From Oscarella lobularis (Eukaryota): a DNA stretch of 45,521 nt. Positions 1 through 20,401 of the stretch are shown here, in pieces (the stretch's first letter is position 1; the number at the start of each line of letters is the position of its first letter). The notes under the pieces were generated by a model. That model worked only from the letters and a program-made list of their open reading frames with translations. It had not been told where the DNA came from and searched no databases. The translations under genes were made by a program, and so were the position numbers. Location of the stretch: contig NC_089176.1 in NCBI RefSeq assembly GCF_947507565.1, positions 4,076,882 through 4,122,402 on the forward strand, in the 5' to 3' direction.

Positions 1-1653
1 GCTGGTAAGAGTCTTGCCCTTGTCATTTGTATGACGGAGTACTCAATAGACGGCAAAGTGCTGCTAGAATGCACTTCGCCTTCTATTATCTGCCAATTTT
101 GCAAATCGTGCCTAAAAAGCTCGCGTTTTCATGAAGAAGACCGTTTACATGTCTCTTTATTCTACGCTCAAGTCCTCCTACATCGGTGTCCGAGGCGTCG
201 TATTGATGCGATTGATCGACAGCTTTCATTTTGTAAAACTCATTTGGAAGCGTTGTCAGCAGACAAGCAAGAGAGTTTCAGAACAAGATACTTGGTAACA
301 TTGGTTGAATTGTGTTTGGTGAAGGGAACGAGCTTACTAGACGAAGATTTGGATGAAATAGAGAAGCAGAAGAGACTGCAGAATAAGGCTGCGCGACTAG
401 CTGCAGCAAAAGCGCGCTTTCAACTGGGCGCGATGAGTTATGGAAAAGATGTCGATAGAGCACACGGTCATTTGAACGAGGCTGTTAGACACTTCAGAGA
501 GTGCCGGGATGAACTACGCGAGACAGACTGTTCTAGATGTTTACATCAAATGTGGATTGGTGATTGTCTCTTTCGAAAGGGAAACTACAAAGACGCTCTC
601 GGCGTTTTCAATGATCTATTGAAGGAGATAGAAGAAGTGTCTTGGCCTGGCGAAGGCGTTGAAACCAAAGACAGAAAAAACATGCGTATCTCTGCTATCT
701 GTTATGCTCAAGGTTTGTCTCAAACTCTGCACTGTTTTGCTGAGAATTCTGGATGGAATGCCGATCAGCTGAAAGAGTGCCTTAAGTTGTTCGAGTCTTC
801 GCTTGAATATATCCGAAATTGCTCCAACTCACCTTTTCTGCATTTTATTTACCTGGCAAAAGGAAAGCTGCATTTGTTGCTTTTTCTATGTGGAGAAGAA
901 CATGATTCTAAACAATTGGAGTTGGCAACTCAATGCTTTGAAAAAGCGGCCGAAAATGACCGTATTCAATGTGAAGCCTCTTCTTTTGAGAAGATCTGCA
1001 ATGCTCCAGGCAAACTTTCAACGAAGAACATTTTTGATTCGGCCAAGATATTTCTTCCTTCAAGCGGCGGCTTTGTCAACATGCAAGAACTTTTCAAAAG
1101 CTGTAAGCGGCGGAACGAAGCGTTAGATCCTTACAAATCTCTCGGAATAAGTCTTTTTGCAAATTCTGCTTTGTATCTGGACAGCTTAAAAAGGGAACGG
1201 AGCAAAGAAGTAGTGTCGCTAGAAAAGGAAGACGTCGACTTCGAGTTTTCTGATGAGGACGACGACGAGGAAGAGGAAGAGGAAGAGGAAGAGGAAGGGG
1301 TTTGGTGGGAAAATGATGTAAAAGCTCAAACCGAGTTTCCAGACGAGAATTCTTCACGTAGGTTATTAATACCATCTAATTGCTTTCGGTCTCTGTCTCT
1401 TTTTGAGCAACACCAACTCTGTCGTCGAAGTAGTGAATCGCGTGGGAATACCAATACTCTAACCAATTTCGATAGTAGCCTCAGTCAGTGGCAAGTCTCA
1501 AGTTATGCTGCTGGTGATGGTGGCGGTGGTCTAGAAAAAAGGGAACGAATTGATCAGAAGTCTATTGGTATTCGCAGTCAAGATGACGAGAGCTCGTTGG
1601 AACTGATATCTTTAGTGGCTGAGCCTCCAACTATGTCAAAATCGCCGCCTTAA
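1..1653 (+). CDS. 3' portion (window starts mid-gene) of a paralog of the DD-STAND-TPR gene at 10.4-13.9 kb; TPR-like helical C-terminal region with acidic Glu/Asp tract
   Basis: Reading frame is open from base 1 to the stop at 1651-1653 (the ORF track's Met at 31 is probably internal). Blocks such as CLHQMWIGDCLFRKGNYKDALGVFNDLLKEIEEVSWP...ISAICYAQGLSQ and the DEDDDEEEEEEEEEE tract parallel CLYTMWIGDCCFLMREYGKALRAYEELLKVEDSVNWP...VSATYYALGLSH and DSEDDDDDDDDDDEDGDG in the 10906-13929 protein. A 3' splice after ~1365 is possible. Confidence 0.5.
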   Translation, partial: AGKSLALVICMTEYSIDGKVLLECTSPSIICQFCKSCLKSSRFHEEDRLHVSLFYAQVLLHRCPRRRIDAIDRQLSFCKTHLEALSADKQESFRTRYLVTLVELCLVKGTSLLDEDLDEIEKQKRLQNKAARLAAAKARFQLGAMSYGKDVDRAHGHLNEAVRHFRECRDELRETDCSRCLHQMWIGDCLFRKGNYKDALGVFNDLLKEIEEVSWPGEGVETKDRKNMRISAICYAQGLSQTLHCFAENSGWNADQLKECLKLFESSLEYIRNCSNSPFLHFIYLAKGKLHLLLFLCGEEHDSKQLELATQCFEKAAENDRIQCEASSFEKICNAPGKLSTKNIFDSAKIFLPSSGGFVNMQELFKSCKRRNEALDPYKSLGISLFANSALYLDSLKRERSKEVVSLEKEDVDFEFSDEDDDEEEEEEEEEEGVWWENDVKAQTEFPDENSSRRLLIPSNCFRSLSLFEQHQLCRRSSESRGNTNTLTNFDSSLSQWQVSSYAAGDGGGGLEKRERIDQKSIGIRSQDDESSLELISLVAEPPTMSKSPP

Positions 1654-2424
1654 GATTTATTTTAAGTGGACTGAACAATGTTGCTAAGGCATCGCTACTT
1701 TTTCAGCCGTTTAGAAATGCTCTAATTATAATTATTTAGTTAATAAATAAATAAATAAATAGTGGGAGTGGAATGAGTGCGTGCCTCTTTGTGAATTCCC
1801 CGGGTTCTGCGTATCTTATGCCTTTTATAGACTGTAGTAGATCAGTCAAGGCAGATAGAACGGATATGCTGCCATGCACGTGATATTCTACCACGTCTTC
1901 TCCTGTAAAACTGTTGGGGCCTACACAGTGTCACAAAGGTCGTTCGCCTATAATGTACAGGGTCTTACGTGGAAACCAGAGAGCCATGGCTTTGTCAATG
2001 AGTTCATACGTGACCGGATTGACGAGTTTTGTCAGTGTAGCTACTCTTGCTTGTGGAAAATGGTCCATTTTGCAAATATCTCGTAGAGTCTGGAGGCAGG
2101 AAAAACTGGAGGGATTGTCGGACTATCTGAGGTCGTACTTTAGAGGCCAAAGGCCCTGATACTCGAACAACAGCTACGCCTATAAGGGGAATGAGCTAGA
2201 AATGCCGTACTATAGAAGATTGTATTTCCCACCGCATTTTCCATGACCAGATGATAAAGCAAAGATCGTAGGCGACCAATTTCTGTCGCAAAAACATCGC
2301 AACTGTTGCAGAATTGCTCGATGACGTCGTTTGACCGATTTGAAGCAGAGAAATTGTGGCCAAGAAGGAAAACGTCGATTGAATAATACGGGCATGTCTT
2401 TTCTAACGTGCGTCTTGCGACGAG

Positions 2425-3003
2425 ATGTTGCTGGTTGGCCTTTCGGGCGGGATAGCAAGCGGTAAAAGCACCGTTTCGCGAATACTGTTGGACTGCGGAT
2501 GTCCTATCATCGACGCTGATCAAATAGCTCGCCAAATCGTGCAGCCGGGCTTGCCTAGCTGGCACGCGATCGTTCGCAAATTTGGCCGAGAAATTTTGAA
2601 CGAGGACGAAACGATAAATCGCGAAAAACTCGGAAAAATCATATTTGATGATCCAGCTAAGCGAAGAGTGCTGAACGGTTGCACGCATCCGGCCATTTTA
2701 CGCAGAATGTTGTGGCAAATTTTGACGAATTTTATTCGAGGAGAAAAAGTCGTAATTTTGGATTCTCCGCTTTTGTTTGAAAGTGGGACGTTTGTTCGAT
2801 ATGTTCATCGTACAATTGTTGTATGGTGTTGCGAGGAAAGGCAAATTGAGAGACTTTATCTTCGAAATGGATTTGATAGAGACAGCGCTCTCAAGAGAAT
2901 TCGTGCTCAAATGTCATTGGACGAAAAGCGTCGAAGGGCTACGTACGTTATTGATAATGACGGTCAGCTGGAAAATACAAGACAGCAAATTCAGGAAATT
3001 TGA
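2425..3003 (+). CDS. DCAKD: monofunctional dephospho-CoA kinase (DCAKD-like, CoaE family), lacking the C-terminal hydrophobic tail present in the 4943-5449 fragment
   Basis: 192-aa ORF MLLVGLSGGIASGKSTV... with Walker-A GGIASGKST. Collinear with remembered human DCAKD (MFLVGLTGGIASGKSS...ILDIPLLFE...). Ends QQIQEI* immediately before an acceptor-like ttatttgcag. Confidence 0.75.
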   Translation: MLLVGLSGGIASGKSTVSRILLDCGCPIIDADQIARQIVQPGLPSWHAIVRKFGREILNEDETINREKLGKIIFDDPAKRRVLNGCTHPAILRRMLWQILTNFIRGEKVVILDSPLLFESGTFVRYVHRTIVVWCCEERQIERLYLRNGFDRDSALKRIRAQMSLDEKRRRATYVIDNDGQLENTRQQIQEI

Positions 3004-4739: not shown

Positions 4740-5021
4740 GTGAGATTTCGATCCAAGATGGCGACTGCGAGCGAAAGAGACAGGGTTCCCAAAAGGCATC
4801 GCCTTCGGGCGGTGGCCAGCTACATCGGCCCATACTGGGAGCATATCGCTGACCACCTTCTACTCGAGTCCTCTTGTGAAAGGACCATTGAGAGGATTCG
4901 CCGTGATTACAAGTTCTCTCAAGATCAAGCTTTCCAAATGTTGTGCACGTGGTCGGAAATGTTTCATACGGAAGCTACAGAGGAGAAACTGTGCCTTGCT
5001 CTATTAAGCGAAGAGTGCTGA
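4740..5021 (+). CDS. death-domain-like exon (divergent DD subtype), fused in-frame to a DCAKD C-terminal fragment; probably a gene fragment or chimera
   Basis: LRAVASYIGPYWEHIADHLLLES...DYKFSQDQAFQMLCTWSEMFHTEATEEKLCLALLSEEC has the six-helix DD pattern (cf. DD at 10556-10909). Sequence then runs directly into RRVLNGCTHPAIL of DCAKD. Confidence 0.35.
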   Translation: MRFRSKMATASERDRVPKRHRLRAVASYIGPYWEHIADHLLLESSCERTIERIRRDYKFSQDQAFQMLCTWSEMFHTEATEEKLCLALLSEEC

Positions 5022-5449
5022 ACGGTTGCACGCATCCGGCCATTTTACGCAACATGTTGTGGCAAATTTTGACGAATTTCATTCGAGGAGAAAAAGTCGT
5101 AATTTTGGATTCTCCGCTTTTGTTTGAAAGTGGAACGTTTGTTCGATACATTCATCGTACAATTGTTGTATGGTGTTGCGAGGAGAGGCAAATTGAGAGA
5201 CTTTATCTTCGAAATGGATTTGATAGAGACAGCGCTCTCAAGAGAATTCGTGCTCAAATGTCATTGGATGAAAAGCGCCAAAGAGCTACGTACGTTATTG
5301 ATAATAACGATCAGCTGGAAAATACAAGACAGCAAACTCAACAAATTTACAAAGAACTCCTCAAGTCAAAGTGGTGTTTGATGGGCAGGATTTTTAGACT
5401 GTCTTGTTCTTTTCTTATAGGTCTTTTTGTAGCACTATGGTTTCTGTGA
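5005..5449 (+). pseudogene. partial duplicate of DCAKD (C-terminal half, KRRVLNGCTHPAIL onward) retaining the hydrophobic C-terminal tail
   Basis: ~90% nt identity to 2680-3003. Continues ...QQTQQIYKELLKSKWCLMGRIFRLSCSFLIGLFVALWFL*, matching the C-terminal membrane anchor of human DCAKD. No N-terminal P-loop half. Confidence 0.6.
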
Positions 5450-5523
5450 TAATACATTTAATTGGATTTATGAATTAGTGAGCCAGTGACGCGCGAGTCG
5501 TTTATACGGGAATTGCAACGAAC

Positions 5524-5926
5524 ATGTCGTCGAAACTGCCGCACGATCTAGCCGCCGGCGCTGGACAGAAATTGCCAAGTGCGATTCGTCGTCTCAAGGA
5601 TAGAGGGAATGGTTGTAGTAGCGTAGAACGATTTTACAGACGAGATACTTCTCGACCTCGCGAAGAAAATCGGCGGAAAGTGGGATTTTGTAGCAGTCCG
5701 GCTTGGGTTGGCAGATCACGAAACTGAGAATATCCGTGACAATTTCACGAAAGTGCAAGACCGAGCTTTTGAAATGTTGAAGACGTGGCGACAGAATGCC
5801 TTCAAAGACGCAACTCGTACCAATCTCTGTATCGCCTTGCTTAAAGAAAAATTGAAGAGTATCGCGTCGGAAACTTTTGGGGATGACTTTGTTGAAGGGG
5901 TCGACAAATCATTATCGCAGAAGTGA
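5524..5926 (+). CDS. death-domain gene copy A (DD exon followed directly by the family's terminal 'atgatttgtccaagtatcactgcgagaagcat' element; kinase region deleted)
   Basis: ILLDLAKKIGGKWDFVAVRLGLADHETENIRDNFTKVQDRAFEMLKTWRQNAFKDATRTNLCIALLKEKLKSIASETFGDDFVEGVDKSLSQK is a full-length DD. Upstream ATG (5524) lies in a conserved leader shared with copies at 6416 and 7740. Confidence 0.45.
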
Positions 5927-6059
5927 AGGTGATTTTCAAGAAACACGATGATTTGTCCAAGTATCACTGCGAGAAGCATCCGACAGTGTGATATCTCTGC
6001 TCTAGCTCTTTTTCTAGTTTTTACGCTGTTACTTTCTTTCTTTTGCTTTTTGTTATTAT

Positions 6060-6300
6060 CATACGGGCATGTTCAATGTGGATACAGTAGCAAGCGGCGA
6101 AAGCACCGTTTCGCGAGTACAGTTGGATTGCGGATCGACGCCGATCAAATAGCTCGCCAAATCGTGCAGCCGGGCTTGCCTAGCTGGCACGCGATCATTC
6201 GCAAATTTGGCCGAGAAATTTTGAACGAGGACGAAACGATAAATCGCGAAAAAGTCGATCCAGCCAGCTAAGCGAAGAGTGCTGAATGGTTCCAGCTATT
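6060..6300 (+). pseudogene. degraded N-terminal DCAKD fragment (P-loop deleted)
   Basis: gtagcaagcggcgaaagcaccgtttcgcgagtacagttggattgcggatcgacgccgatcaaatagctcgccaaatcgtgcagccgggcttgcc... matches 2455-2650 with deletions. Encodes ...IDADQIARQIVQPGLPSWHAIIRKFGREILNEDETINREK then degenerates. Second near-identical copy at 6940-7185. Confidence 0.6.
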
Positions 6301-6335
6301 TTACGCAGCACTTCACGAGTAGTCTGGAGGCCACA

Positions 6336-6418
6336 CCTATGCCACGGTCACGTGCAAGGGTCAGGTGACCTGACTACTTCACGAGCGAGTCGATTATACG
6401 GGAATTGCAACAAACATG
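6336..6418 (+). promoter_or_regulatory. conserved leader/promoter-like element of the DD gene copies (E-box CACGTG + inverted AGGTCA-like repeat GGTCAGGTGACC + cgagtcgattatacgggaattgcaac.aacATG); repeated at 7661-7742 and partially at 5480-5526
   Basis: Near-identical 80-bp block immediately upstream of the ATG of DD copies B and C. Copy A keeps only the 3' half (gcgcgagtcgtttatacgggaattgcaacgaacATG). Confidence 0.3.
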
Positions 6419-6805
6419 GCGGCGCACGTCGGGGCTGGAGAAGAATTGTCAGGTACAATCCGTCGTCCCAAGGATAGAGAATGATTGTAGCAGCGTAGAA
6501 ACGATTTTACAGATAAGACACTTCTCGACGTCGCGAAGAAAATCGGCGGAAAGTGGGATTTTGTAGCAGTCTGGCTTACGCCCAAGTTGGAAGAGCATGA
6601 AATTGACAATATCAAAGCCAATTTTACGAGAGTACAAGACCAAGCTTTTGAAATGTTGAAGATGTGGCGAAAGAATGGCCACAAAGCTGCAACTCCTACC
6701 AATCTCTGTGTCGCCTTGCTTGAAGAAAAGTTGAAGAAAATCGCGTCGGAAACTTTTGGGGATGACTTTGTTGAAGGGGTCGACAAATCATTATCGCAGA
6801 AGTGA
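6416..6805 (+). CDS. death-domain gene copy B (truncated paralog)
   Basis: Conserved leader ...cgagtcgattatacgggaattgcaacaaacATGgcggcgcac. DD TLLDVAKKIGGKWDFVAVWLTPKLEEHEIDNIKANFTRVQDQAFEMLKMWRKNGHKAATPTNLCVALLEEKLKKIASETFGDDFVEGVDKSLSQK. ~880 bp tandem repeat relative to copy A. Confidence 0.45.
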
Positions 6806-6939
6806 AGGTGATTTTCAAGAAACACGATGATTTGTCCAAGTATCACTGCGAGAAGCATCCGACAGTGTGATATCTCTGCTCTAGCTCTTTTTCTAGTTTT
6901 TACGCTGTTACTTTCGTTCTTTCTTTTGCTTTTTGTTAT

Positions 6940-7185
6940 TATCATACGGGCATGTTCAATGTGGATACAGTAGCAAGCGGCGAAAGCACCGTTTCGCGAG
7001 TACAGTTGGATTGCGGATCGACGCCGATCAAATAGCTCGCCAAATCGTGCAGCCGGGCTTGCCTAGCTGGCACGCGATCATTCGCAAATTTGGCCGAGAA
7101 ATTTTGAACGAGGACGAAACGATAAATCGCGAAAAAGTCGATCCAGCCAGCTAAGCGAAGAGTGCTGAATGGTTCCAGCTATTTT
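6940..7185 (+). pseudogene. second degraded N-terminal DCAKD fragment (tandem repeat of 6060-6300)
   Basis: Near-identical to 6060-6300; part of an ~880-bp tandem repeat that also carries DD copy B. Confidence 0.6.
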
Positions 7186-7739
7186 ACGCAGCACTTCACG
7201 AGTAGTCTGGAGGCCACACCCTTCGCTCGGGAGGAAGGGTCTGGCCAAACGCGCATGGTCCAAGTGTTGCATGCGGTACGCGCTAAACGAATTAAGTTAT
7301 TAGAGACGCCCTACGTCATAGCTTCGACATCGCAAAAGCGAGACAACTAGGGGAGAATTGGAACGTCTAGGCGATCGTACGCAGAAGCGACGAGCTCCGC
7401 AGCAGAGGAGTTCGTCGTTTTCGCGTACTACATTGCTTTCTTTCGCGTACGATCGCCACGTTTTCGCTTACGATCGCGTACGATTGGATGGCTTAAGCGT
7501 GCGATCGACCTGGATCGCTCATCGCTACTCCTATAAAAACATTCGAGGGCGATAAACGGTTAGAACAGCTAATTGGCCCCTACGTCACAGACAACTCGGC
7601 CTGTGATTGGGCCGCACTCCACAGTGCGGGGTGCAACACATCCCCCCCTCCCGATTGACCTGACCCCACGGTCACGTGCAAGGGTCAGGTGACCTGACTA
7701 CTTCACGAGCGAGTCGATTATACGGGAATTGCAACAAAC

Positions 7740-10041
7740 ATGGCGGCGCACGTCGGGGCTGGAGAAGAATTGTCAGGTACAATCCGTCGTCCCAAGGATA
7801 GAGAATGATTGTAGCAGCGTAGAAACGATTTTACAGATAAGACACTTCTCGACGTCGCGAAGAAAATCGGCGGAAAGTGGGATTTTGTAGCAGTCTGGCT
7901 TACGCCCAAGTTGGAAGAGCATGAAATTGACAATATCAAAGCCAATTTTACGAGAGTACAAGACCAAGCTTTTGAAATGTTGAAGATGTGGCGACGGAAT
8001 GACCACAAAGCTGCAACTCGTACCAATCTCTGTGTCGCCTTGCTTGAAGAAAAGTTGAAGAAAATCGCGTCGGAAACTTTTGGGGATGACTTTGTTGAAA
8101 GGGTCGACAAATTATTATCGCAGAAGAGAGAAGGTGATTTTCATGATTTGCAAAACAATAGGCCCATTACCGGTGCTACTGGTACATTTCTTGTAGAAAT
8201 TGAAAAGAGAGGCCAAGACGATAAGAGGGTTTTTGATCTTGAAAATGAGCCGTTCTTCCAGGATATGCATAGGTATGGCCAAATAGATGCAGTAGTTTTA
8301 GTTTTGCAAATTGTTTGAATGGCTAGAGGTTATTTTGTACGTCATCAAAATCAAAAGAAACGTTTGGTGGCTGTCAGAAAAGCTCCTTTGAATGACAAAC
8401 GGATGAGCAATGAAATGGATATCTTGGAATCGAGAAAATGCGACAATTTGATTGGATTTATTGATGTCGTGGTAAGTCTACGGTACCATGTAGCGAGGAC
8501 GTGTATTAGATGTCTACTGCAGACGATTGACACCGTTTGGCACTGCTGTCTTCAATATTGTGAATATTCAGTAGAACAAGTAGGTGCCCAGTCTCTAGTT
8601 GTGCCATCATAGATGCCATACGCTATGTGTATTCCTTTAATTTATTTGTAGTATGTACTTAAGAAGGATGACGCATATAAAACCCTAAAGGGCGTTATCT
8701 ACGAAATTGACATTGTTCGTGGTGTTGCTAGCGGTTTAGACGATCTTCACAGCAGGGAAAAACCAATAAGTAAGGTGCCTGGTTTCGTGTAGGGTCATAT
8801 TCTCTTTAATAATCAATTAGCTCATATAAATCTCGCCCCTGCTGGCGTACGTATAATGGTGGACGAAAACGGAAAGGTAGAAGCAAAAATTTGTGACATA
8901 AGTACTTCGCCCAGATTGTACGAACATGCAATTGCAATGGAAGGATTCATTGTCAGAACAGTAGATGTGGGTAGGTGGGGCTGTGTGTCAGTATCTTACT
9001 TTCTGCAGAATCCAAGTCCTGATGTGGATGTCTTTTCGTTTGGATGTTTTGCGTACTACGTCATCACTAACGGAAAGCATCCGTTCAGTGAGCCTGGGAG
9101 CGTGAGCAGTGAGCTAAGCGAAATTCAGTCAAGAATAGACTCTGGCAAGTTTGAACCTAATTTTGAAGCGTTGGAAGGTAAGTCGATTAATTAATTAATT
9201 AAACGCGTATTTTAGTGTGGTCTTACTATACGTAGATTTGGTGAACAAAAGCGTGGAACTGAAGGTGAAAGAAGACAAAATTAGACGTATAGGGAATCCA
9301 GCAGCAGCTTTGGCGCTTGTGAAATCTACATTGTCTGAAGGAAAAAAGTGAGTTTGCCTGTCAGTGCGTGCATTCTCAGCAGATGCAGCTCGTTACTGTG
9401 AATAGGCCTTCATCTTGCTGTATTAAAAGTCACTGTTACTTTTTCAAGCCGGGTCGCCAAGTTGAATTTCATTGGGTACGCTGTAATCATTACTCAACTT
9501 CATTGTTGTTACAATTTCTATGCAGGATTTTGGCGGTACTACACCATTTTATGAAGGGGAGAAAACTGACAACGAGGATATGGACTCGCTTTTGGACGAA
9601 CTGTCTAGACACGATGAAGACGTCGTTGGTTGGAAAGGTCGACTTGAAAATTTGGGAGCAAAAAAGGGTAGTGTTCTCATAGTAAATTCTCATCAACTCT
9701 TTGTTGAAAGCGCTTCTAGAATTTTTGAGCAAGCAGCTCGTCAGGCACAAAAAATGCGGAGATAACGTCCAATCTTTTTCAAAATTCCTGCGTAATCAAG
9801 TATGAAACTTCATGTTTTCGAAAATAAACTAATTACACAACGGCACGTACATGTAGTTCTCCCACAAACAAAACAGGGACGAAATAAGAGAGTTTTTTGA
9901 ATCGGATGAGAAGAGTGCATTGTTACTCAACCGTGGGTTTCCCAAGCTTCTTCCTGTATGTTGGGAAATAAGCAAGAAGTTGTTGTTGTTGCAAAAACAA
10001 CATGATTTGTCCAAGTATCATTGCGAGAAGCATTTTTCATA
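7740..10041 (+). CDS. death domain + pseudokinase gene (IRAK/Pelle-like domain order), multi-exon; most complete member of the local family, possibly itself inactivated by one in-frame stop
   Basis: DD exon 7825-8130. Same-frame continuation into a kinase N-lobe (8319-8471: ...KKRLVAVRKAPLNDKRMSNEMDILESRKCDNLIGFIDVV|gtaag) but with a TGA at 8316-8318. Exon 8655-8777 (...GVASGLDDLHSREKPI|gtaagg). Exon ~8860-9190 (NGKVEAKICDISTSPRL...DVFSFGCFAYYVITNGKHPF...|gtaag). C-terminal exons 9228-9345, 9520-9690, ~9880-10041 (...LSKYHCEKHFS*). VAIK Lys->Arg, HRD->HSREKP, DFG->DIS. Confidence 0.5.
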
Positions 10042-10393
10042 GGCTTCATGACATTTCCGCCTCTAGCTCTTTTTCTACTACTGCTGTCAGTTGTCGTACT
10101 TTCAATGCGCTGTTTTATTCGATTTTTTACCCTGGCTTTTTTTACTGTTGTTATTGAATATACGGACGTGGTAATAGCACCGTATGACAGTCAAAGTGGG
10201 TGTTTGGTGGGCCGGATTTTTAGACTGTCTTGTTCTTTTCTTATAGGTCTTTTGCAGCAATTTGGTATCTAGGCTGATAATTAATGGCGAACGAGGGCGG
10301 CCTGTGACTGGTTACAGCACGTGCGCAGCGCAACCAACCATACATGGTATGGCGCAACTCGAGCGCGGGTGTGGTAATACGGGCTTCAGCGAA

Positions 10394-13300
10394 CATGGCG
10401 TCGCAAAAAGAAGACTCTCCTGCCAGAAGAGGGTCTACGCCATCTTCATCTTCGACGCGTGACGAGTTTCTTGACGACAATTTAGAGCAAGAAAATTCCT
10501 CTTGCAGCTTTCGTTATGGTAGAGAGGAGTTAGCAGGTAAATAATCGCTAAAAGAGTGGATGAAAACCGTACTAGTAACTACGCTCACTTTATAGAAGAC
10601 CTACTTCTCGATTTGGCGAAGAAAATTGTTTCTTTTTGGCCAAATTTGGCAATCAGGCTGAAGTTGGAGAGAAGTGATATCGATGCTATCGAACTCGATG
10701 TAGAGAAAGTTCAAAACCGAGCGTTCAAAATGCTGATGACATGGAAAGAGCAGGTCTACGAAAAGGCAAATGCTTTCAGTCTTTGCCAAGCTTTGCTTGA
10801 GGAGAAAAGACGGGACATTGCTTTGGAGATTTTTGGAAAAGACTTGGTTAGGAACGTCGAAAGTTCCGCAGAAGGTGATACAGTATTAAATCAGGCTGCC
10901 TTACAATGATGTCTGTTTCTCTTACAGCCGCAAAGAGTGCAAAGGGCTCCCTGCTGTCTTTGGATAATTCAGGAATTGAGAAGGGAGAGAAAAAAATTCT
11001 GGAAGAAAGCTTGCCGCCTCAGTCAAGCTTTAAGCCAACGTTGGGAAGTGAGTCTAGTGGAAAATGTCTTTTGAATCATCACAGTCTTCCTCTCTTGCCG
11101 GAATCGTTTTGCGGGAGAGATGACGTTATACGAGATGTCATTCGGTGTATTGAAGAAGACAAAATTCCTCTTTGCTGGCTTTGGGGGCCACCCGGATGCG
11201 GCACAAGCACTGTCGGAATTGCAGTTCTTCACAGGATACGTGACAGACGGGGAACGCCAAGCGCTGTAGCGGTAAAAGCTTCTCGGTTTTCGTTTCTTCA
11301 ACTGCAAGAACTTATTCGCTCACATTTACGGCAACTTTCTGAGCATGATCATTGTACGTTTCTCGTTGACGGATACGACGAGAATTTAGAGCACCACGAG
11401 AAGGATTTTCTCGTGGCAATTGAGGATTTTGTTCAAGAGCTGGGCAAGGAATTTACTGTGTTGGTGACTTCACATAAAAAGTCTTCTTGCTTTATTGGCG
11501 CATTGCGCGTTGAATCAATTGAAGTCAGCTGGCTTGGAGACGAAGAAGCAACGGAATTGTTGACTTGGCACTATACGGGAGGGAAGAAAGATAGGGTTTC
11601 TGATGACTCTATTCATAAATACCTGAAGCGTCTCGCTCTACGTTGTGATGGAATTCCTTTTGTCCTCAAAGCTGTTGGTTCAGCAGGATATGCAGCTTGT
11701 CATTCTCGTTCTGATCGCGTGTCTATGGAACGTTCAATACGTAACTCGCAGAGGGTTCTTCGCTTAGACAACGCTTTGTTTGAACGGTTTTGCAGCAGTT
11801 TTGATCCAGAAGGAGAAGGACTTGAGGCCTGCTTCAAGACGTGTCATGAACGTTTGCCAGAGGAACTAAAAGTCTTCATTCTGGGTCTGGCTATTATCTC
11901 GGATTCATTTTCTGCCGATTTTGGACGAAAAATTCTTGGTCTTAAACAAAAAGAAAGCGATAGGATTATGACTCGCTTAAAAGATCGGGGCTTGATTACT
12001 TCTTGTCAGCGCAAAAGGGGCCAAGGCTACCGTCAAAGCTACTGTATTCCACGATATTTACGCCAATACCTTATGGCTAAAAGCCAGTCAAGCACCGAAC
12101 AGTGTGTAGCTGCAGCGAGAGCAAGATACTTTGAAAAAATTCGAGAGGTTATCACACATATTTCTAAACGTCTTCGAGATAAAAGGCAGAGCGATGCTCT
12201 GCAGACTTTTACAGATCACAGAAGCAGAATACTTGGTTTTCTTCAGTTGCCCTCCAGCATTTTAGATTCGAAAGCCCATGAAGTTACTATGGCCATCTGC
12301 AAATCTGCTTACGTGAAAAATGTCTTGCTTGACTACGTATTAGTAGACACGCTTCGCCTGTTTTGCGAAACCAGCTTGGATCGTATTGCCAAATCGGACT
12401 CTAAAAGCAAACAGGACGAAGCTTATATTGCTATCTTTTTAGCGCAAATCGTATTAAAGCAGCAGCGGTACCGGCAAGGTGATCTAAAGAAAATAGATGG
12501 TATGCTGCAGGCCGTCGTAAAAGAAGGTACTTTACCGAAAGAGATTTTGCTTCAGCGCAAGATAGCGCAAGCTCAAATTTTAATGGCAAAGGGCGAGCAT
12601 TTTAACGCCGTCGATTTATTAGAAAGGAAGAAAAAGAAAGTGAGTTTATCAGCACTCGCTATTCTTGGAAAAGCGTCGTATCAGCTTGGTATTCGTAACG
12701 CGGCAGATTCGCAATCGGAAGAGGAATTTTGGAAGATTGTGCGTCCTCATTTTGAAGAAGCGAGAGAATGTTTTGCTAAATGCATTGAAAATTTAGCGAA
12801 GAACGATAGCCTGACATGTCTGTATACAATGTGGATTGGAGACTGCTGCTTCTTGATGCGAGAGTATGGCAAAGCGCTGAGAGCCTACGAAGAACTTCTA
12901 AAAGTAGAAGACAGTGTAAATTGGCCCAATACGGGAAGCGACTTTGTTAGCAGGAAGAGGACGCGAGTGTCAGCCACTTACTACGCGTTAGGGCTGTCTC
13001 ACCTACAACTTCACGTCAAGGAAGGAGGCTGGGATGCTAAAGATTTAGCTTTCTGTCTTGCTTCTTTAGATGCTTCAATACAAGGACTCGCTGCAGGGTT
13101 TCCCTACTCTTGCTTTCTTTCAGACGTTGTGTATCGGGCGAGAGGAATAGTGCTTTTGCTACTGGCTTTGAAGGAGCAGTGGAAGACTTCCTCCAACCAG
13201 CCAAACCGTCACGTTGTTGCCTACCTAAGCAAGGCTGTAGAGTCGTTCACGGAGATTTCTTGCAGAAATTCGGTTCTCACTAATGAACGAAAAGCTTTTC

Positions 13301-13929
13301 TTGACGTCGCGAATGCATATAAAGAAGGGCGAACGGTCTCTCCTGAAACCAAGCTCGTTTCAAAATCAGCGCGAATTTTATTGGACCTAACACCTGGCTC
13401 TGAAAAATCGAAGGTGAAGCTTCTTTTTGCCAAGTCTCTTTTGTATCTCGATATTGTTGAAAAAGACAGAAATCAAAGACTGGTGTCTCATGAAAAAGCT
13501 TTGTCTTATGAAAGAGCTTTTGATTCGGACTTGGATGCGTCTGATTCTGAAGACGATGATGACGATGACGATGATGACGATGAAGACGGTGACGGCGTTC
13601 CCGACTCCTCCTATGAACATCAAACAGCATATGCAGCAAGCCGTTTCCAAAGACGAAAAGTTATGAAAGGATTCGTAAATTGCTTTTTGCCATCTTGGAC
13701 AAATGAGACAATTCAATCACAGTCTAATGGAACTGGTCTCAATGAAACGCAAACATTGGCATCTGAGCTGATCACATCGTCTGTTGAGTGGGCAGATCTT
13801 ACGTACTCCGGTCTTCCCGGGCGTTCTTGTCCTGCGAGAGCTAAAAATTCTAGTGGCAACTACTCGTCATCCGATTTCACTACTCGGAAGTCCGCAAAGA
13901 CTGGTCCTCCTGTGATGGACCACTCTTGA
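10394..13929 (+). CDS. death domain - P-loop STAND NTPase (NACHT/NB-ARC-like, Walker-A Lys replaced by Thr) - TPR-like helical repeat protein; NLR-like/Apaf-like architecture
   Basis: Candidate exon 1 MASQKEDSPARRGS... (10394-~10536). DD exon 10556-10909 (...LDLAKKIVSFWPNLAIRLKLERSDIDAIELDVEKVQNRAFKMLMTWKEQ...CQALLEEKRRDIALEIFGKD). 1007-codon ORF 10906-13929 with LWGPPGCGTSTVGIAVL (Walker A, K->T), CTFLVDGYDE (Walker B), long helical C-terminus and acidic tract. DD/NTPase junction differs in frame and the splice is unresolved. Confidence 0.6.
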
Positions 13930-14039: not shown

Positions 14040-15330
14040 CGACAACTTTGACGGACCTTTTCGGCAGTATCAATGCCCCACATAGTCAAAAGTCCTTCGT
14101 ATCCACCGACTTCATATTCGTCAGGAGTTGCAAAATAGCCCATGTGATTATTGCTGTATCTGGAGAGAAGCGATTGAAGGAGAGATTGTTATTCTTGAGA
14201 AATCTGTACCCTGCAAGAAGAGTATTCGTGAATCCCAATTTGAGCGAGTCATTTCGAATATTCCACCCAAGCTCAAGCAGCGCTTCTCCTGGAACGGTCA
14301 CCATGAGAGTATGGTTTCCACCGATACTAGAAAGGAAAGGAAATCAGTCTCTGTTTGGATTGAAAATTTATTACCTTATATTCAATGCAGTGAACGTTGG
14401 AGACTCTTCAATCCAGGCAGAATCCAAGTGAAGGTTAACATCACAGCGAAGCTGATTGGGGAGAAAAGACGCGTGGCTGGCTATTTGTCATCGCTCTGCC
14501 TACTCACCACCCTGCAGAGAGAACAGATGTCGAGTGGACCGCCCTGCGTACAATTTGCGACACGGGCTAGAGTCAAATTCCCCTGCGTCTCTCCAAAATC
14601 GACTACAGTGGAAGCGGAAACGAGTCCGACGTCGTCCGACGTCACCGGCGTATCGTCGCGCAGCCGTTGAACGGCAGACGCAATAACGGGCGCTCCGGCA
14701 TAATTGGGTTTGCCGGCACACGCAGATCCAGCTAAAAACGACAAACAAATTCGTCTAGAGACAGCTATAGTCGTCTTATTGACCGACCGGGAGCAATGTC
14801 TCCAGCGTCGGCATTGATGAACATGGCGACGCTTTGATGACCGACAGCCGTCTCGATGGCGTCGCATGCACCACCCATGATGTCGCCGTTGGAAAGCATT
14901 TGATCGGGTCCCCAGCACGTTCCATGAATGGCAAAGTTCCACACTTAATAAATAAATAAATAGAGAGAGAAGGCGGTAGGCGAAGCGTTTGAAGATTGTA
15001 TCTTGAAGCGTACCTGTCGCCAAAGGGGTTCCATCCGACGATCGATCGACACGTATGACGCCCAAATGAGGATCAATTGAACCGACTTGCACGTACGGAC
15101 TGATGTCGGCTCGTCGATTTTCCGTCACTCCGACCAGTTGACCAAAATCTATAAAAGTCAATATTTGTCATCGTCTAACATCTGGCGGCGGACGAGCGAG
15201 AGACGGACTAATTCCCATTTTGGCTGGTTGGAGATTGGCTTGCGCCTGAAGCATTGCGTCGGCGAGAGACGATGCAAGCATGTCTTGAAGCTCTGCAAGA
15301 GCAAGGCAATGAAATTAGCGTCCGTTTGAT
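14040..15330 (-). CDS. unidentified multi-exon gene (minus strand); exons encode ...LQDMLASSLADAMLQAQANLQPAKMGI / DFGQLVGVTENRRADISPYVQVGSIDPHLGVIRVDRSSDGTPLAT / GNFAIHGTCWGPDQMLSNGDIMGGACDAIETAVGHQSVAMFINADAGDIAPG / AGSACAGKPNYAGAPVIASAVQRL...
   Basis: Consecutive open segments on the minus strand joined by plausible GT/AG sites (e.g. acceptor cttttatag|attttggtcaactgg at ~15128, donor after ...PLAT at ~15008). Product not recognised with confidence. Confidence 0.3.
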
Positions 15331-16349
15331 TGTTTACGCTTCGATCGTTTGCTGGCCACTACCGGCTTCGATGGGCGGCCGGTGGCGGAATGGACTACCT
15401 ACCTGGAACAAGGATATCAGTAGCCGGCGCAAGAGACCAGAGGAGTTCAGGCGTCACGGCGCCTGGTCCGCTATGAGTGTGCGATCCGTGGACGGTGAAG
15501 CGATCGAACGGCACGGTGAAACCGCGCGCCGCCGCCTTTTCCCAGGCGAGTTTTCGCAACGTGCCGTCAGCGCCTAGCAGCCTCCGTCACGTACGGTATA
15601 CGTATGGAAAAGTGCGGTCACAATGTTATACCAATTGCGTCAACCGTAAGAAAACAGAAGGTCGTATTGCCATTATCGAGAAGGAGCGCTTTTGCCCACG
15701 TCGTTTGCAGGTGGCCCACACTCGGAGTCATAAACTGCAGACAGGTATCTTTTAGTAGGTCTGCGATTCCCCCCGCCCACCCCATCATATGCAATAAGAG
15801 CTTACATTTGTATACTGCTTTGGATCGGGTAGAGGCCAGTATTTGACTCTTCTCTCTCCATGGTTATAGCCTAGCAGAGGACGTACATATAGCCAGTGTC
15901 TGTTGCGTGTGCGCATATTCATTGAACATCCTATTGACTCACCTGCCAGTGGAACGCCGACAGGAAGAGTTGCTGTAAGGAAAAAATTCGATAAGTGTCG
16001 CGCGGTATCCGATAGGGGCAAGTTATTCAATATTCACTCTAGCCGAGAGGCGTGTTTACGTAACGGCTTGCGAGGCGGGGTTTGCAGAGGATAAAAGGGC
16101 TCGCGCTCGGACACGAACGAACGAAAGGTCAACTTTGTTTGGGTTCCCCCGGCGACTGACCGTTGACTTTGGCCACGCCAGCACGTAGGGTGCCTGCAGT
16201 CGCAGCTGTAAGAGACAAGAGGAAGAAGACGAAGAAGGAGAACATTGGCCTCCGAGGAGGGGTGGAGTCGCAGACAAGAGAAGAGAGGACTATCCGGGTG
16301 CACACGCCCCTCCCCCTCGATAAGGCTTCTTCCCTCGCGTTCGTTCTCG

Positions 16350-19300
16350 ATGGCGAGGACGCTGCCTCAATGCGGCGTTCTACGATTGACTCTTCTCTTT
16401 GCCGCGCTCGTCGTCGTCGTTCAGGTCGTCGTTTTAGTTCGCTTCTCGTCGTCGTACGATGACGTTGACAATTCGAAAGGAGCGATTGGGGCTCCCAACG
16501 GGGAAACGCGAACGTCGATCCCTGCTGTGGTCTCTCGTACGAGCGACAGAGTCACAGAGGTAAGTTGCGTAGAGACGACGAGGAGAGAGAAGGACTTATT
16601 TACGTAGAAGCCGCATTTTGTCGACGATCGTCGCAAAGAAGAAGAAAGTCGGAAGCCGGAACGTATTAATGTCGACTCTCGCATCACAAAAGAAATGCCA
16701 GTGAACGTTCTTGTTCCTTCAGACAACGATGACGACGAGGAGGAGAAGGAAGAGGAGAAGAAAGAGGAGAAAGAGGATGCAGAGGTGAGTTGGAGCGAAC
16801 CGACAACGAGTCCATGCGACATCGAATGGCCCGACGCTCAATCGGCACTCAATCGAGCGCGTAGCGATCAATGCAAAGCGGAGCTACGACGCGTCACTTG
16901 TCTCGCTCAACGTAATCTTCTTTACGATGTCAATTTGAAGAAGAGTTGTCCTTCTTTGCCAACCGCCGCCGCCGCCGGCGCTGGCGGCGCTGGCGCGATT
17001 CAAAAAGAGCAACGTGTCGTCGATTGGAAAGATCTACGAATCGTTTATCTGATGGTTGTACATGGTCGTGCATTTCGACAGTTTCGTCGACTTTTCAAAG
17101 CGATTTATAATCGACAGCATTACTATTACATTCACGTCGATTCGGTGAGAAAAAGAAAAAGAGAGAGGAGAATCTACATATGCACGTATACGTAGAGGGT
17201 GACCATCTGGTCAGTCCGTCCTACTTGTGTCTAGTGCGAGGGTTTGAGACGTATAGATAGCTGAAAAGTGCGTCTAGGCAAACATCAGACCGACTCGATA
17301 TCCTCATCTTTTACCCCTCTTTTCTCAATTCCATTAGCGACAAGGGCTTCCGCTTGCATGCCACAAACGTTTCCCTTTCCTATAACAATAATATCTTTTC
17401 TTGGGGGCTAGAGATCCGACTATTTGCATCGAAAGATTGAGGAGTTGGCCTATGATTATTCGAACGTCGTTTTGTCGTCGTGGCGATTGGCTTCGATTTG
17501 GGGCGGAGCTAGTCTTCTACAAGTTTTGCTTCGTTCCATCGACGATCTCATACAACGACGTGACTGGGAGTGGGATTTCGTAATTAATTTAAGCGAAAGC
17601 GACTATCCTATTAAGTAAATGGCCTCGCACAAGACGACGCGTGTTTCATATTTTTATTGAGTATTTATAGAACGGAAGAAGCGTTGATGAAGTATCTCGC
17701 CCAACGTCGTGGGAAGAATTTTCTGAAGCCACACGGAGGCAATGCCATGAGGTGAGGCGGATGTGATTGGGGAAATATCCCTTCCCTAGGGGCGTGATTG
17801 TGATCCATCCATCATCGATTATTAGATTTATTAAGAAACAAGGTCTCGATCGAACGTTCGTGGAATGCGACAATCACATGTGGCGAATAGGAAATCGCGT
17901 TGTTCCGCCTGATATTGACGTCGATGGGGGAAGCGATTGGATCTGTTTGAATCGCGAGTTTAGTGACTATCTCATCAATTCAAGAGACCATTTGCTCGTT
18001 GGACTCAAACAGATGTATAAGTATTCTTTACTTCCGGCTGAGGTGAGTGAGTAACAGTACTATTTATGAATAATCTACGTTTTTTTTTCTAGTCGTTTTT
18101 TCATACTGTTCTTCGCAATGGACCCATGTGTCATTCGTTTGAGAAGAATAATCTTCGCGTGACGAATTGGAATCGAAAATTGGGCTGTCGTTGTCAATAC
18201 AAACACATTGTCGATTGGTGTGGTTGTTCTCCTAACGATTTCAAGCCAGAGGATTTAGGTCGACTTCAGGTGAGGCACAAAAAAAAAAGAGAAGAGAAAT
18301 TAGAAAGCGCCATATTTCTTCTTTTCAGAATTCCCCTGATCGATTTTTTGCGCGAAAATTCGAAGCGGTCGTAAATCAGGAAATTATTAATCGACTCGAC
18401 TCGTGGCTCTTTGGGGAAATGCCTCCAGATACGCCCGGTATGGATACATACATCGAAAGTCTTTATCACGTAGACGATACACTGATAAAGCCGCCAGATT
18501 CACATATGACTTGTTGGCTTGCGTTCATGCGATTGGGCACAAGTCATTTAGGGCAAATATCAAAGCAACAGCAGCACGGGGGTGTCGGGGGTGGTGTATT
18601 AGGAGCAGATTCTGGCTCTAATCATCCCCATGGCAGCCCCTGTGCACTCGAACCCGTTGGAAAACCAATTGAAGTGAGCGTTTTTAAGGAAAAGGACGAT
18701 CTTCGCGGGCTTGTTGTGACGTTTGACGTCAGTCCCGTGGGAACGGGGGGACGGCAACGTTTAAAAGCGCAAACGTGGTTTGAACGAATTGCTGATCCGA
18801 CGACGTATTCGGCATTGAGAGGACCTTCAGCACGACTCACATTTTTAGGAGTAAGACCTACGTCTTTTCTGCTCTACGTCCTTTTGGTTTTTTTAGGTTG
18901 GATATCACTACGATGAAAAGGAGAGAATGTTTCGTAGTTTTGGAAATATTATCGGTCCCCATGACGACGTCGTCGTCGCTTGTCAATGGACCCAAGGAAT
19001 GGTTATCACTGTCAAATTCACGTGGTATGATCCACTTGGTCAAGTGGCAGCCGTTCAATCTCAATCTGTTCAAGCGACGTCCGTTGTCTCCTTTTATCGT
19101 CCTTCTCTCGATCGACCACTCAAACCGGGCGTTTGGCGAACTGTAGCTGAGTACGAAGGTGAGAAATTGGCGTCTACTGAATTCGTTATTATGCCCGTTT
19201 CCGTTCACAATGGCGTCGAGATGCGTGACATGGAATTGGCGGCGAAATTAAATGGCATTCCTAGTCATGCCGCCGCCGCCGCCGCCGCCAATAATGATCG

Positions 19301-19514
19301 CGTTCTTCGCGACGTTCCAGACGTGAATCGTTGGGTAGACGCCGTTGTTGGGAAGCATTGGCGATTGCAAGGCTTTTGCTTGGAAACGGCGCCACCGCAA
19401 GACGAATGCGGTTCATCGGCCGTTTCTCTTTGCTCTTCGGAATATTGGAGTACAGCTTATCCTGATCCCAAATCGGAATTGGGTCCTATAGGAAAAAATG
19501 GTCGCATCCGGTAG
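16350..19514 (+). CDS. XYLT: protein xylosyltransferase (XYLT1/2 / oxt / sqv-6 family, GT14 core), type II membrane protein, multi-exon
   Basis: Exon 1 16350-16559 ([24 protein letters not shown]... signal anchor; donor gag|gtaagt). 48-bp intron. Exon 2 16608-17144 (...[36 protein letters not shown]|gtgag). Further exons ~17412-17605 ([23 protein letters not shown]...[15 protein letters not shown]), ~17655-17752, ~17782-18048 ([24 protein letters not shown]...DGGSDW), ~18100-18270 ([37 protein letters not shown]), ~18322-18850, ~18900-19514 (...[18 protein letters not shown]). Collinear with remembered human XYLT2 including the C-terminal DPKSELGP motif. Confidence 0.85.
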
Positions 19515-20342
19515 CACATAGACTTGGATTTTATTCTCTTACTAGCATGCCGTATTAGTTTGTTGGTGGTTGAGGTGGGCGATGGATGGCGGCGGCGCAG
19601 AGCTACTTTAGGAATTATGGTTGTAGACAGGAGGAAAAAAAGATGGAGTCAGTGTGTAGCACTACTACATGTAGATTATTATAGACTGACTGAAGCTGTC
19701 CGCCGCCGCCCGATTCTCTATCCCTACCATCGTACCTGATTGTTTTTTCTAGTAGAGAGATCAAATGTTTTCAAATAAATTATTGACTCTGTATTTCTTC
19801 GTACGGGGACCGCGCTCTTCGCCACGTCAGCGTTGACGTCACGGTACGGAAGCGTGTTTCGCTTCGTTCGCCGTCGAATAAGGGTATTTTAGACGCGAAA
19901 GTTTAGCTCTGCTATTGTTTGGTTTAGGATTGGCGAGATAGTGCGTCTTTTTTCGTCGCATATCGATTGTTGTCGCCGCTTCCGCCGCCATCTTTCAGTT
20001 TGTCTGATTAAATCAGCGCGTAGGGCGGTGCGTTACGTCTTACGTCGTTCGCGAGGACCGTCTCGGATCCTTAGAGCAAGCGTCGAGTGAAAAAGAAATG
20101 GAATAGACGAAGAAAAGCGAGCTACAATCAGTGTATCGTTTTTCCTTCGTTTTCTTCGTTTCTGACATCACTACGGACACGTGCACGAGCAATTTGAATC
20201 GTGGATTTCTATATTTGGACGGCGCGTTTCCGGGTAATGGCTATTGGGCGTCGATTGAGCGACTAGACAGTCGCAACTGCGCGATCCTCTTTCGTCGTCC
20301 AAGAGATGAGACACGACCCATGGCACACACATTCCCATTCAC

Positions 20343-20349
20343 TATAAAA
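20343..20349 (+). promoter_or_regulatory. TATA box (TATAAAA) ~55 bp upstream of the start codon of the cbEGF gene
   Basis: actataaaacgcagtcgctgagccgagacacatcacttc...ATG(20402). Confidence 0.35.
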
Positions 20350-20401
20350 CGCAGTCGCTGAGCCGAGACACATCACTTCTTCATTGTCCCTCATCACGAA
20401 G

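Follow-up and report, generated by a model that had tools for sequence, protein, structure and literature searches.

A death-domain STAND gene with threonine in place of the Walker A lysine in a subtelomere of the sponge Oscarella lobularis

The window analysed here is a stretch of 45,521 nucleotides from Oscarella lobularis (RefSeq assembly GCF_947507565.1, contig NC_089176.1, positions 4,076,882 to 4,122,402 of the forward strand), and coordinates refer to it unless another locus is named. At 10395-13929 it carries a gene for a protein with a death domain (DD), a STAND-type P-loop NTPase domain and C-terminal helical repeats, in which the lysine of the Walker A motif is replaced by threonine. 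STAND switches such as Apaf-1, the NLRs and the plant R proteins are thought to depend on this lysine, and its mutation is the standard way of inactivating them. The question raised by the locus is whether the replacement marks a dying gene copy or a protein that uses its nucleotide pocket in another way. The reading we favour, at a probability of roughly 0.55, is that of an intact gene with a DD, an NB-ARC-like NOD and tetratricopeptide repeats (TPR), which belongs to a conserved lysine-to-threonine subclade of at least four loci and encodes a non-cycling receptor or adaptor whose pocket is still used.

Gene model and allelic constraint

The open reading frames (ORFs) of the window include one of 1007 aa at 10906-13929 and, upstream, one of 117 aa at 10556-10909 that contains the DD. 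Both had been described in an initial annotation made from the letters alone, which saw no clean canonical intron between them and left the integrity of the gene in doubt. The gene model below supplies that intron and joins the two ORFs:

10395..10536, + strand: exon 1, starting MASQKEDSPARRGS..., 47 codons plus one base; likely start codon at 10395
10537..10595, + strand: intron 1, 59 nt, GTAAAT...TTTATAG (GTAAAT...CACTTTATAG); 50 nt in the other allele
10596..10874, + strand: exon 2, death domain (Pfam Death); allelic indels of 3 and 9 nt only
10875..10927, + strand: intron 2, 53 nt, GTGATA...TCTCTTACAG; 60 nt in the other allele
10928..13929, + strand: exon 3, linker, NOD, TPR-like domain, acidic tract and tail; stop codon TGA at 13927-13929

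Intron 2 (GTGATACAG...TGTTTCTCTTACAG) combines a canonical donor with a pyrimidine tract and an AG acceptor. It contains the stop codon that ends the DD ORF as well as the ATG from which the 1007-aa ORF was called, and its removal puts the DD exon and the NTPase exon into one exact frame; the spliced translation of the three exons is 1140 aa long. Introns of about 50 nt are also found in an EGF-repeat gene of the same window (21172-23400), which agrees with the size of the two introns here. An in-frame ATG at 10344 is an alternative start of exon 1, and the start codon context of a paralog (A-K-M-A) is similar to that of the focal gene. Two other arrangements were rejected: a 20-nt version of intron 1 (10537-10556) would let a 10-nt allelic deletion at 10574 hit coding sequence, and a coupling of the prokaryotic kind at the ATGA of 10906-10909, where stop and start overlap, was set aside as incidental, the overlap being situated within intron 2 of a eukaryotic gene.

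The alleles were compared between the hifiasm primary contig ptg000371l and the alternate haplotig atg000654l of the same assembly. All 13 exonic indels are multiples of three (6, 3, 9, 9, 9, 3, 3, 3, 15, 12, 3, 6 and 3 nt), with a single one of 6 nt in exon 1 and ten in exon 3. Indels of other lengths are confined to intron 1 (1 and 10 nt), intron 2 (one of 7 nt) and the sequence directly after the stop codon (7 nt). The four splice sites are all retained, including the GT and AG of intron 2, and both alleles give a stop-free reading frame of 1140 aa. In the alternate allele the 60-nt intron 2 is free of stops by chance, and because of this the prokaryotic ORF caller reports a DD-NTPase fusion of 1085 aa (P0002).

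Synonymous divergence (dS) between the alleles is 0.122 and nonsynonymous divergence (dN) 0.073, which gives a dN/dS of 0.60. The NOD (0.50, Fisher p 0.013) and the TPR region (0.44, p 0.0011) have lower ratios, and the DD has a higher one of about 1.3, which is not significant. Two transcript-derived proteins of Oscarella pearsei, described below, are colinear with the whole protein and therefore no extra intron is needed in exon 3. From reading frames, splice signals and alleles we read 10395-13929 as one intact, spliced, three-exon gene.

The lysine-less P-loop

Exon 3 encodes the following domains and motifs:

11107..11535, + strand: nucleotide-binding domain (NBD), five-stranded P-loop core; model strands 39-43, 70-74, 99-105, 132-139 and 152-156
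11185..11211, + strand: Walker A GPPGCGTST, codons GGG CCA CCC GGA TGC GGC ACA AGC ACT
11356..11382, + strand: Walker B TFLVDGYDE, on strand 3, with a NACHT-like DGxDE extension
11461..11481, + strand: strand 4 and sensor-1 position, LVTSHKK, with His-Lys in place of the Arg of NB-ARC and NACHT
11644..11679, + strand: GxP motif of the helical subdomain (HD1), CDGIPFVLKAVG; Pro invariant in 15 of 15 aligned relatives
12040..12072, + strand: "MHD"-equivalent of the winged-helix subdomain (WHD), YCIPRYLRQYL, Pro for His and Arg for Asp
12088..13428, + strand: TPR-like alpha-solenoid, presumed sensor domain
13522..13596, + strand: acidic tract DSDLDASDSEDDDDDDDDDDEDGDG, at a conserved position throughout the family

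The threonine codon ACA at 11203-11205 stands in the expected lysine position and the other residues of the motif are intact. Walker A and Walker B thereby read as first described, and the Walker B Asp is nearly invariant among the 15 relatives. The family P-loop, GPPGCG[K/T]S, resembles GMAGCGKS of Apaf-1.

For the other loci, Walker A was read upstream of ORFs called on other contigs, which gave the following comparison:

Focal gene: GPPGCGTST
Focal allele P0002: GPPGCGTST
L004 (ptg000332l): GPPGCGTST
L005 (ptg000025l): GPPGCGTST
P0003, extra copy on the alternate haplotig: GPPGCGTTT
P0006, upstream neighbour: GPPGCGKS
P0009, Oscarella pearsei: GPPGCGKS
P0010, Oscarella pearsei: GSPGCGKS

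The exchange of lysine for threonine is common to at least four loci, whose proteins are 40-56% identical to the focal protein, and every more distant relative has GK[ST]. Three copies use ACA for the threonine and two use ACC, P0006 having AAA at this position, and synonymous differences are seen in the neighbouring Gly, Pro, Cys and Thr codons of the lysine-less copies. Columns identical in all four lysine-less loci make up 27.7% of the alignment. The P-loop block LCWLWGPPGCGTST is identical at 12 of 14 positions and is the top 14-residue block of the protein, followed by the MHD-equivalent (9/14) and the GxP motif (8/14).

Judging from these comparisons, we regard the exchange as a clade character and not as decay. 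A single A-to-C change (AAA to ACA) in the clade ancestor, followed by purifying selection, would explain the pattern. The initial annotation had suggested a regulatory, non-hydrolysing family member or an unusual mode of nucleotide binding, and both suggestions gain weight from the conservation of the change across a clade, as against a one-off; they would still seem to be the best readings of it.

Three further motifs differ between the two clades:

Walker B: DG[YWF][D/A] in the Thr clade (D in three of four loci), D[KN] in the Lys clade
Sensor-1: [SL]H[KR] in the Thr clade, [AT][YC] in the Lys clade
MHD-equivalent: IPR in the Thr clade, [IV]P[DGE] in the Lys clade

This co-variation rests on five sequences from one genome and may be plain shared ancestry. 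It is also the basis for a reading in which the pocket has remained catalytically competent without its lysine, with the positive charge coming from elsewhere and nucleotide still being bound and turned over. Candidates for the charge are the clade-specific His-Lys/Arg at sensor-1 and the Arg found instead of Asp in the MHD-equivalent IPRY; P-loop, MHD-equivalent and GxP being the three most conserved blocks of the Thr clade fits as well. The Walker A lysine touches the beta and gamma phosphates, and the NLRP3 mutant K232A, in which signalling is abolished and hydrolysis lowered threefold, retains one third of its hydrolysis in vitro (PMC9633759). The co-variation speaks less strongly for such a pocket if it reflects ancestry, and the entire family, lysine or not, is without the sensor-1 Arg and the MHD His. 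We know of no STAND protein in which the Walker A lysine has been relocated, and consider a competent pocket possible but rather unlikely.

Fold, class and relatives

The short ORF matches Pfam Death (PF00531) over profile positions 7-82 of 86 with 37.2 bits (cut-off 22.6, E 3.3e-9), which bears out the DD, and an AlphaFold2 model of exon 2 is all-helical with five helices, the death fold having six, at a low predicted local distance difference test score (pLDDT) of 61.5. In hidden Markov model (HMM) searches of the long ORF the best Pfam match is NPHP3_N (PF24883; cut-off 24.8), which scores 27.6 bits with the ORF and 28.3 bits with the trimmed protein; the match spans only the part from P-loop to Walker B (profile positions 21-116 of 164). 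NPHP3_N, which 12 of the 15 relatives also match, is the P-loop module of nephrocystin-3 and related to NACHT. NB-ARC (PF00931) reaches 22.9 bits with the whole ORF and 23.5 bits, exactly its cut-off, with the trimmed protein. Weaker signals were obtained for AAA_16, AAA and TPR, and the NACHT model has no match in the focal protein at E<=1.

An AlphaFold2 model of the residues encoded by 11056-13452, built on a 15-sequence alignment, has a mean pLDDT of 82.8 and a predicted template modelling score of 0.69. In order, it consists of the five-stranded P-loop core, one helical and one winged-helix subdomain and a long alpha-solenoid. The top Foldseek matches in the PDB are CED-4 (8jol, 2a5y, 3lqq), the ZAR1 resistosome (6j5t), a wheat NLR, WRR4A and NRC2. 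These matches to CED-4 and plant NLRs cover about 320-400 residues of NBD-HD1-WHD, and the solenoid repeats are TPR of the LGN/Pins type and not leucine-rich repeats (LRR) in the fold comparison. A sequence search of the PDB gave only insignificant matches to the RFC P-loop. HMM and fold comparison together agree with the architecture proposed at the outset, an Apaf-1/NLR-like combination of DD, STAND NTPase and helical-repeat sensor.

The STAND class of P-loop NTPases was reportedly described by Leipe, Koonin and Aravind in 2004. Of its hallmarks the focal protein has the NBD-HD1-WHD fold of the NOD, a Walker B of hhhhD plus acidic residue and C-terminal superstructure-forming repeats, and it departs from the Walker A consensus GxxxxGK[ST] in having Thr for Lys. 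The GxP (GLPL) motif of NB-ARC is present; the sensor-1 Arg (RNBS-B "TTR") and the His of MHD/LHD are missing. The NACHT match and C-terminal LRRs of bona fide animal NLRs are both absent, with only the DGxDE of Walker B being NACHT-like. The caspase-recruiting CARD N-terminus of Apaf-1/CED-4 adaptors and the WD40 repeats of Apaf-1 and Dark are replaced by a DD and by repeats that qualify as TPR. At the motif level the protein is a hybrid with a NACHT-like Walker B and an NB-ARC-like GxP, and we file it as a divergent NB-ARC-like STAND protein, not as a bona fide NACHT-LRR NLR.

One could argue for the opposite assignment, to the NACHT clade of animal NLRs, from the Walker B DGYDE, which fits the NACHT-type DGxDE (PMC9633759). 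The best Pfam match, NPHP3_N, and the NACHT matches of 7 of the 15 relatives point the same way. This assignment is doubtful, since the focal protein itself has no NACHT match, its repeats are TPR with no LRR, the closest solved folds are all NB-ARC (CED-4, ZAR1, wheat NLR, WRR4A, NRC2) and the NB-ARC model matches 10 of the 15 relatives, with a best E of 3.9e-19.

Few relatives turned up among known proteins. HMMER, run exhaustively over 1.84 billion representative proteins, returned 22 hits at E<=0.001, eight of them at E<=1e-10. The close matches all come from the same assembly, the next two are Oscarella pearsei transcripts, and the remainder are invertebrate NB-ARC-TPR proteins of 16-20% identity. 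Word-indexed protein searches returned only the focal gene, its allele and P0003, candidates probably being swamped by the acidic tract, and a scan of JGI metagenomes with a P-loop pattern gave 125 pattern matches and zero relatives. On this evidence the focal gene is taken to be part of a small lineage-specific family.

The two O. pearsei proteins, P0009 and P0010 (EP00118_P017210 and P010396), are transcript-derived and colinear with the focal protein through a death-fold N-terminus (CARD, E 1.6e-12), NOD, helical domain, acidic tract and tail, at 21-23% identity. They are the sole named relatives and represent the same family at full length, tail motifs included; with a CARD in place of the DD and a canonical GK[S] Walker A they are not orthologs. 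An LFA.S.LY.D motif stands before the acidic tract, and NCF.P and PP.M..S motifs follow it in the tail, which runs to 13926. Tract and tail motifs are conserved in position from the focal protein to the O. pearsei transcripts, and appear to form a family-specific C-terminal module.

Within the window a second family member, P0006, is seen with its C-terminal 550 codons at 1..1653 on the + strand, as the initial annotation had noted; it is 28% identical to the focal protein (E 3e-29). This 940-aa ORF has its Walker A upstream of the window, and reading past the edge gives the canonical GPPGCGKS. P0006 lies on the same strand as the focal gene, about 8.7-9 kb upstream. The earlier count of at least two paralogs within 12 kb is thus right, though the neighbour comes from a different, lysine-containing subclade. 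The lysine-less relatives are on other contigs; the exception is a single pseudogene copy, which only the alternate haplotig of this region carries. One of them, P0005 (L005), is flanked on both sides by huge HEPN-domain (sacsin-like) ORFs, at L005 1-4214 and 10996-12720; the HEPN/sacsin-like family is often tied to stress or defence.

Among known systems the nearest are the expanded CED-4/Apaf-1 homologs of amphioxus, sea urchin and Nematostella, which carry N-terminal DD, CARD, DED or TIR domains and bear TPR instead of WD40 (Zmasek et al. 2007, PMC2246300). The family shares with them a death-fold N-terminus, an NB-ARC-like NOD, C-terminal TPR and lineage-specific expansion, and the distant matches P0011 and P0013-P0016 are of this invertebrate type (NB-ARC plus TPR_12, one with a TIR-like N-terminus). 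It differs in its 16-20% identity, in reaching NB-ARC only at the cut-off, in the Lys-to-Thr exchange, in lacking the sensor-1 Arg and MHD His, and in having the acidic tract and family-specific tail. With CED-4/Apaf-1 and the plant NLRs ZAR1, NRC2 and WRR4A the protein has the NBD-HD1-WHD fold and the GxP motif in common; it has a DD instead of CARD, CC or TIR and TPR instead of WD40 or LRR, and it lacks the lysine, the sensor-1 Arg and the MHD His. NACHT-LRR NLRs with a DD or CARD have been described in the sponge Amphimedon (Yuen et al. 2014, PMC3879445). They are alike in phylum, in death-fold N-termini and in forming multi-copy candidate innate-immune families, but with NACHT and LRR where the focal protein has an NB-ARC-like domain and TPR, which places it outside the NLR definition of that study.

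Haplotypes, neighbours and possible role

The focal gene is about 31 kb from a telomere. The window ends in perfect (TTAGGG)n at 45188-45521, preceded by telomere-associated repeats, in keeping with the subtelomeric setting first proposed. The repeats of 43273-45521 consist of 31 perfect copies of the 10-mer AGCTTAGCCC (43273-43580) and then of 429-bp and 141-bp units that embed short TTAGGG runs.

Divergence between the primary contig and the alternate haplotig (L001 9711-23258) is 7.4% in the gene (10374-13929) and 0.56% in the 9.4 kb downstream (14500-23902), a 13-fold allelic excess whose boundary is sharp and coincides with the gene's 3' end. The two haplotypes differ in structure upstream of 10374. 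On the primary one are P0006, copies of a dephospho-CoA-kinase (CoaE) ORF and four orphan DD exons. The alternate haplotype has the extra lysine-less copy P0003 (DD exon plus NOD; L001 5466-8807), which is not in the window, and P0006 does not appear within 10 kb upstream of the focal allele there. At L001 9000-9929 a DD exon nearly identical to that of P0006 stands directly before focal exon 1 and shares an open frame with it (309-aa ORF), and a tandem-DD transcript is conceivable on this haplotype.

This contrast would suit alleles that are old or balanced, or else gene conversion from paralogs. With two haplotypes compared, gene conversion or a non-allelic assembly is a possible source of the allelic divergence. 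Together, divergence and differences in gene content would make up the pattern of a fast-evolving recognition locus, possibly under balancing selection. Of the fast-evolving immune gene family to which the initial annotation alluded, the fast evolution fits the allelic excess, and an immune role may be supposed.

We propose the following for the protein. The TPR solenoid would bind a ligand or partner, the NOD would act as a conformational and oligomerisation scaffold, and the DD would recruit downstream death-fold partners by homotypic assembly, as in apoptosome and NLR signalling. Poor or no NTP hydrolysis is expected because the Walker A lysine is absent and the sensor-1 Arg is absent too, with His there. 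The protein would be a non-cycling, P-loop-independent receptor or adaptor, which may co-assemble with lysine-containing relatives. The pocket is probably still used and not dead, because its motifs are the most conserved parts of the protein; it could bind nucleotide or phosphate, or serve as a structural latch from NBD to WHD. The allelic divergence along with presence/absence variation would suggest nonself or pathogen recognition.

NLRs that function without a working P-loop are known from rice Pb1 and the ADR1 family (PMC3782705, PMC7747998), and these offer an analogy for a non-cycling receptor or adaptor, as STAND proteins without canonical or functional use of the P-loop. Pb1 has lost the whole motif and ADR1 has kept the lysine, whereas the present clade swaps the lysine only and strictly keeps the other P-loop residues; it also belongs to another phylum and has other effector and sensor domains.

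Several observations weigh against the reading of a conserved, non-cycling receptor. Neither the sensor-1 Arg nor the MHD His is present in the lysine-containing members, and the nucleotide cycle of the whole family may be atypical in general. The overall dN/dS speaks for moderate constraint only, and the value for the DD shows none. The P0003 locus is a haplotype-specific pseudogene with at least three frameshifts, and P0005 shifts frame near its C-terminus (intron or frameshift) identically on both haplotigs. The transcript-backed relatives are all lysine-containing and distant, and a consistent genomic pairing of lysine-less with lysine-containing members was not seen at L004, at L005 or on the alternate haplotig. 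With these points taken in, a polymorphic, non-hydrolysing receptor or adaptor is what we consider most likely from the comparisons made.

A bolder version would see a stable pocket with no lysine, in which the charge is supplied in trans within the NOD (sensor-1 His-Lys/Arg or the IPRY Arg) or a different ligand is bound, as a non-cycling switch encoded by ancient, balanced, hyper-divergent subtelomeric alleles and as a candidate receptor for nonself or allorecognition in an early-branching animal; this we can only offer as speculation, and hold to be unlikely as a whole.

The two subclades lie next to each other on the primary haplotype and both the focal gene and P0006 carry death domains that could interact, which raises the prospect of a P-loop-independent sensor that works only together with P0006, in the manner of the partner-dependent paired plant NLRs (PMC7747998, PMC3782705). 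Such a pair is distinctly unlikely, as L004 and L005 have no lysine-containing neighbour within 6 kb, P0006 is absent beside the focal allele on the alternate haplotig, and the two genes stand head-to-tail at a distance of 9 kb with other genes and fragments between them.

That the gene is instead a decaying subtelomeric pseudogene, its lost lysine and the frame break between DD and NTPase being signs of a dying copy, is very improbable: a surrounding duplication mosaic with orphan DD exons and CoaE fragments, a frameshifted sister copy on the alternate haplotig, the dN/dS values of 0.6 and about 1.3 and a gene known from sequence alone would fit it, but the frame break is a clean 53-nt intron, two alleles at a dS of 0.12 hold the 1140-aa ORF with every exonic indel in frame, dN is significantly lower than dS in both the NOD and the TPR region, and the threonine is kept through synonymous codon turnover in four loci with the P-loop as the best-conserved block.

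The remaining features of the neighbourhood are:

4803..8108, + strand: segmental-duplication mosaic, orphan DD exons interleaved with CoaE fragments
4803-5015, 5630-5911, 6497-6790 and 7821-8108: orphan DD exons, intact over the domain, with Pfam Death matches
5006-5446, 5963-6299 and 6889-7182: CoaE fragments

CoaE ORFs recur at 2422-3000, 4803-8108 and 10201-10251 of the window and at L003 4653-6163. One is complete (about 200 bits) and the others are partial or degenerate, each about 100-300 nt upstream of a DD exon; a 50-nt remnant of a CoaE 3' end is located upstream of the focal gene. It seems as if the duplication unit were CoaE plus DD(-STAND). A single fused CoaE-DD-STAND gene was not adopted, as each CoaE ORF ends in a stop of its own, the DD genes start in a conserved context of their own and only the 50-nt remnant of CoaE is left at the focal gene. 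Downstream, a xylosyltransferase-like gene (Branch, Xylo_C) at 16695-19514 consists of several ORFs split by short introns and is 99-100% identical between the haplotigs. The EGF/EGF_CA repeat gene at 21172-23400 is built of units of about 165 nt, each of one EGF exon and an A/T-rich GT..AG intron.

The DD-NB-ARC-TPR architecture is already known in invertebrates. New are the sponge-type family itself, which is very divergent, the clade inside it with a conserved Lys-to-Thr P-loop, and a hyper-divergent, structurally polymorphic subtelomeric locus. Prokaryote-style ORF calling cuts the gene into a DD ORF and an NTPase ORF, and the gene model is now corrected. The family extends the sparse record of intracellular receptors in homoscleromorph sponges, and its 13-fold allelic excess and haplotype-specific gene content mark the locus as a candidate for balancing selection or allorecognition. 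A natural clade without the Walker A lysine, in which the strongest constraint nevertheless lies on the rest of the pocket, is a ready test case for non-hydrolytic roles of that pocket and also informs the origin of non-cycling members of the STAND family.

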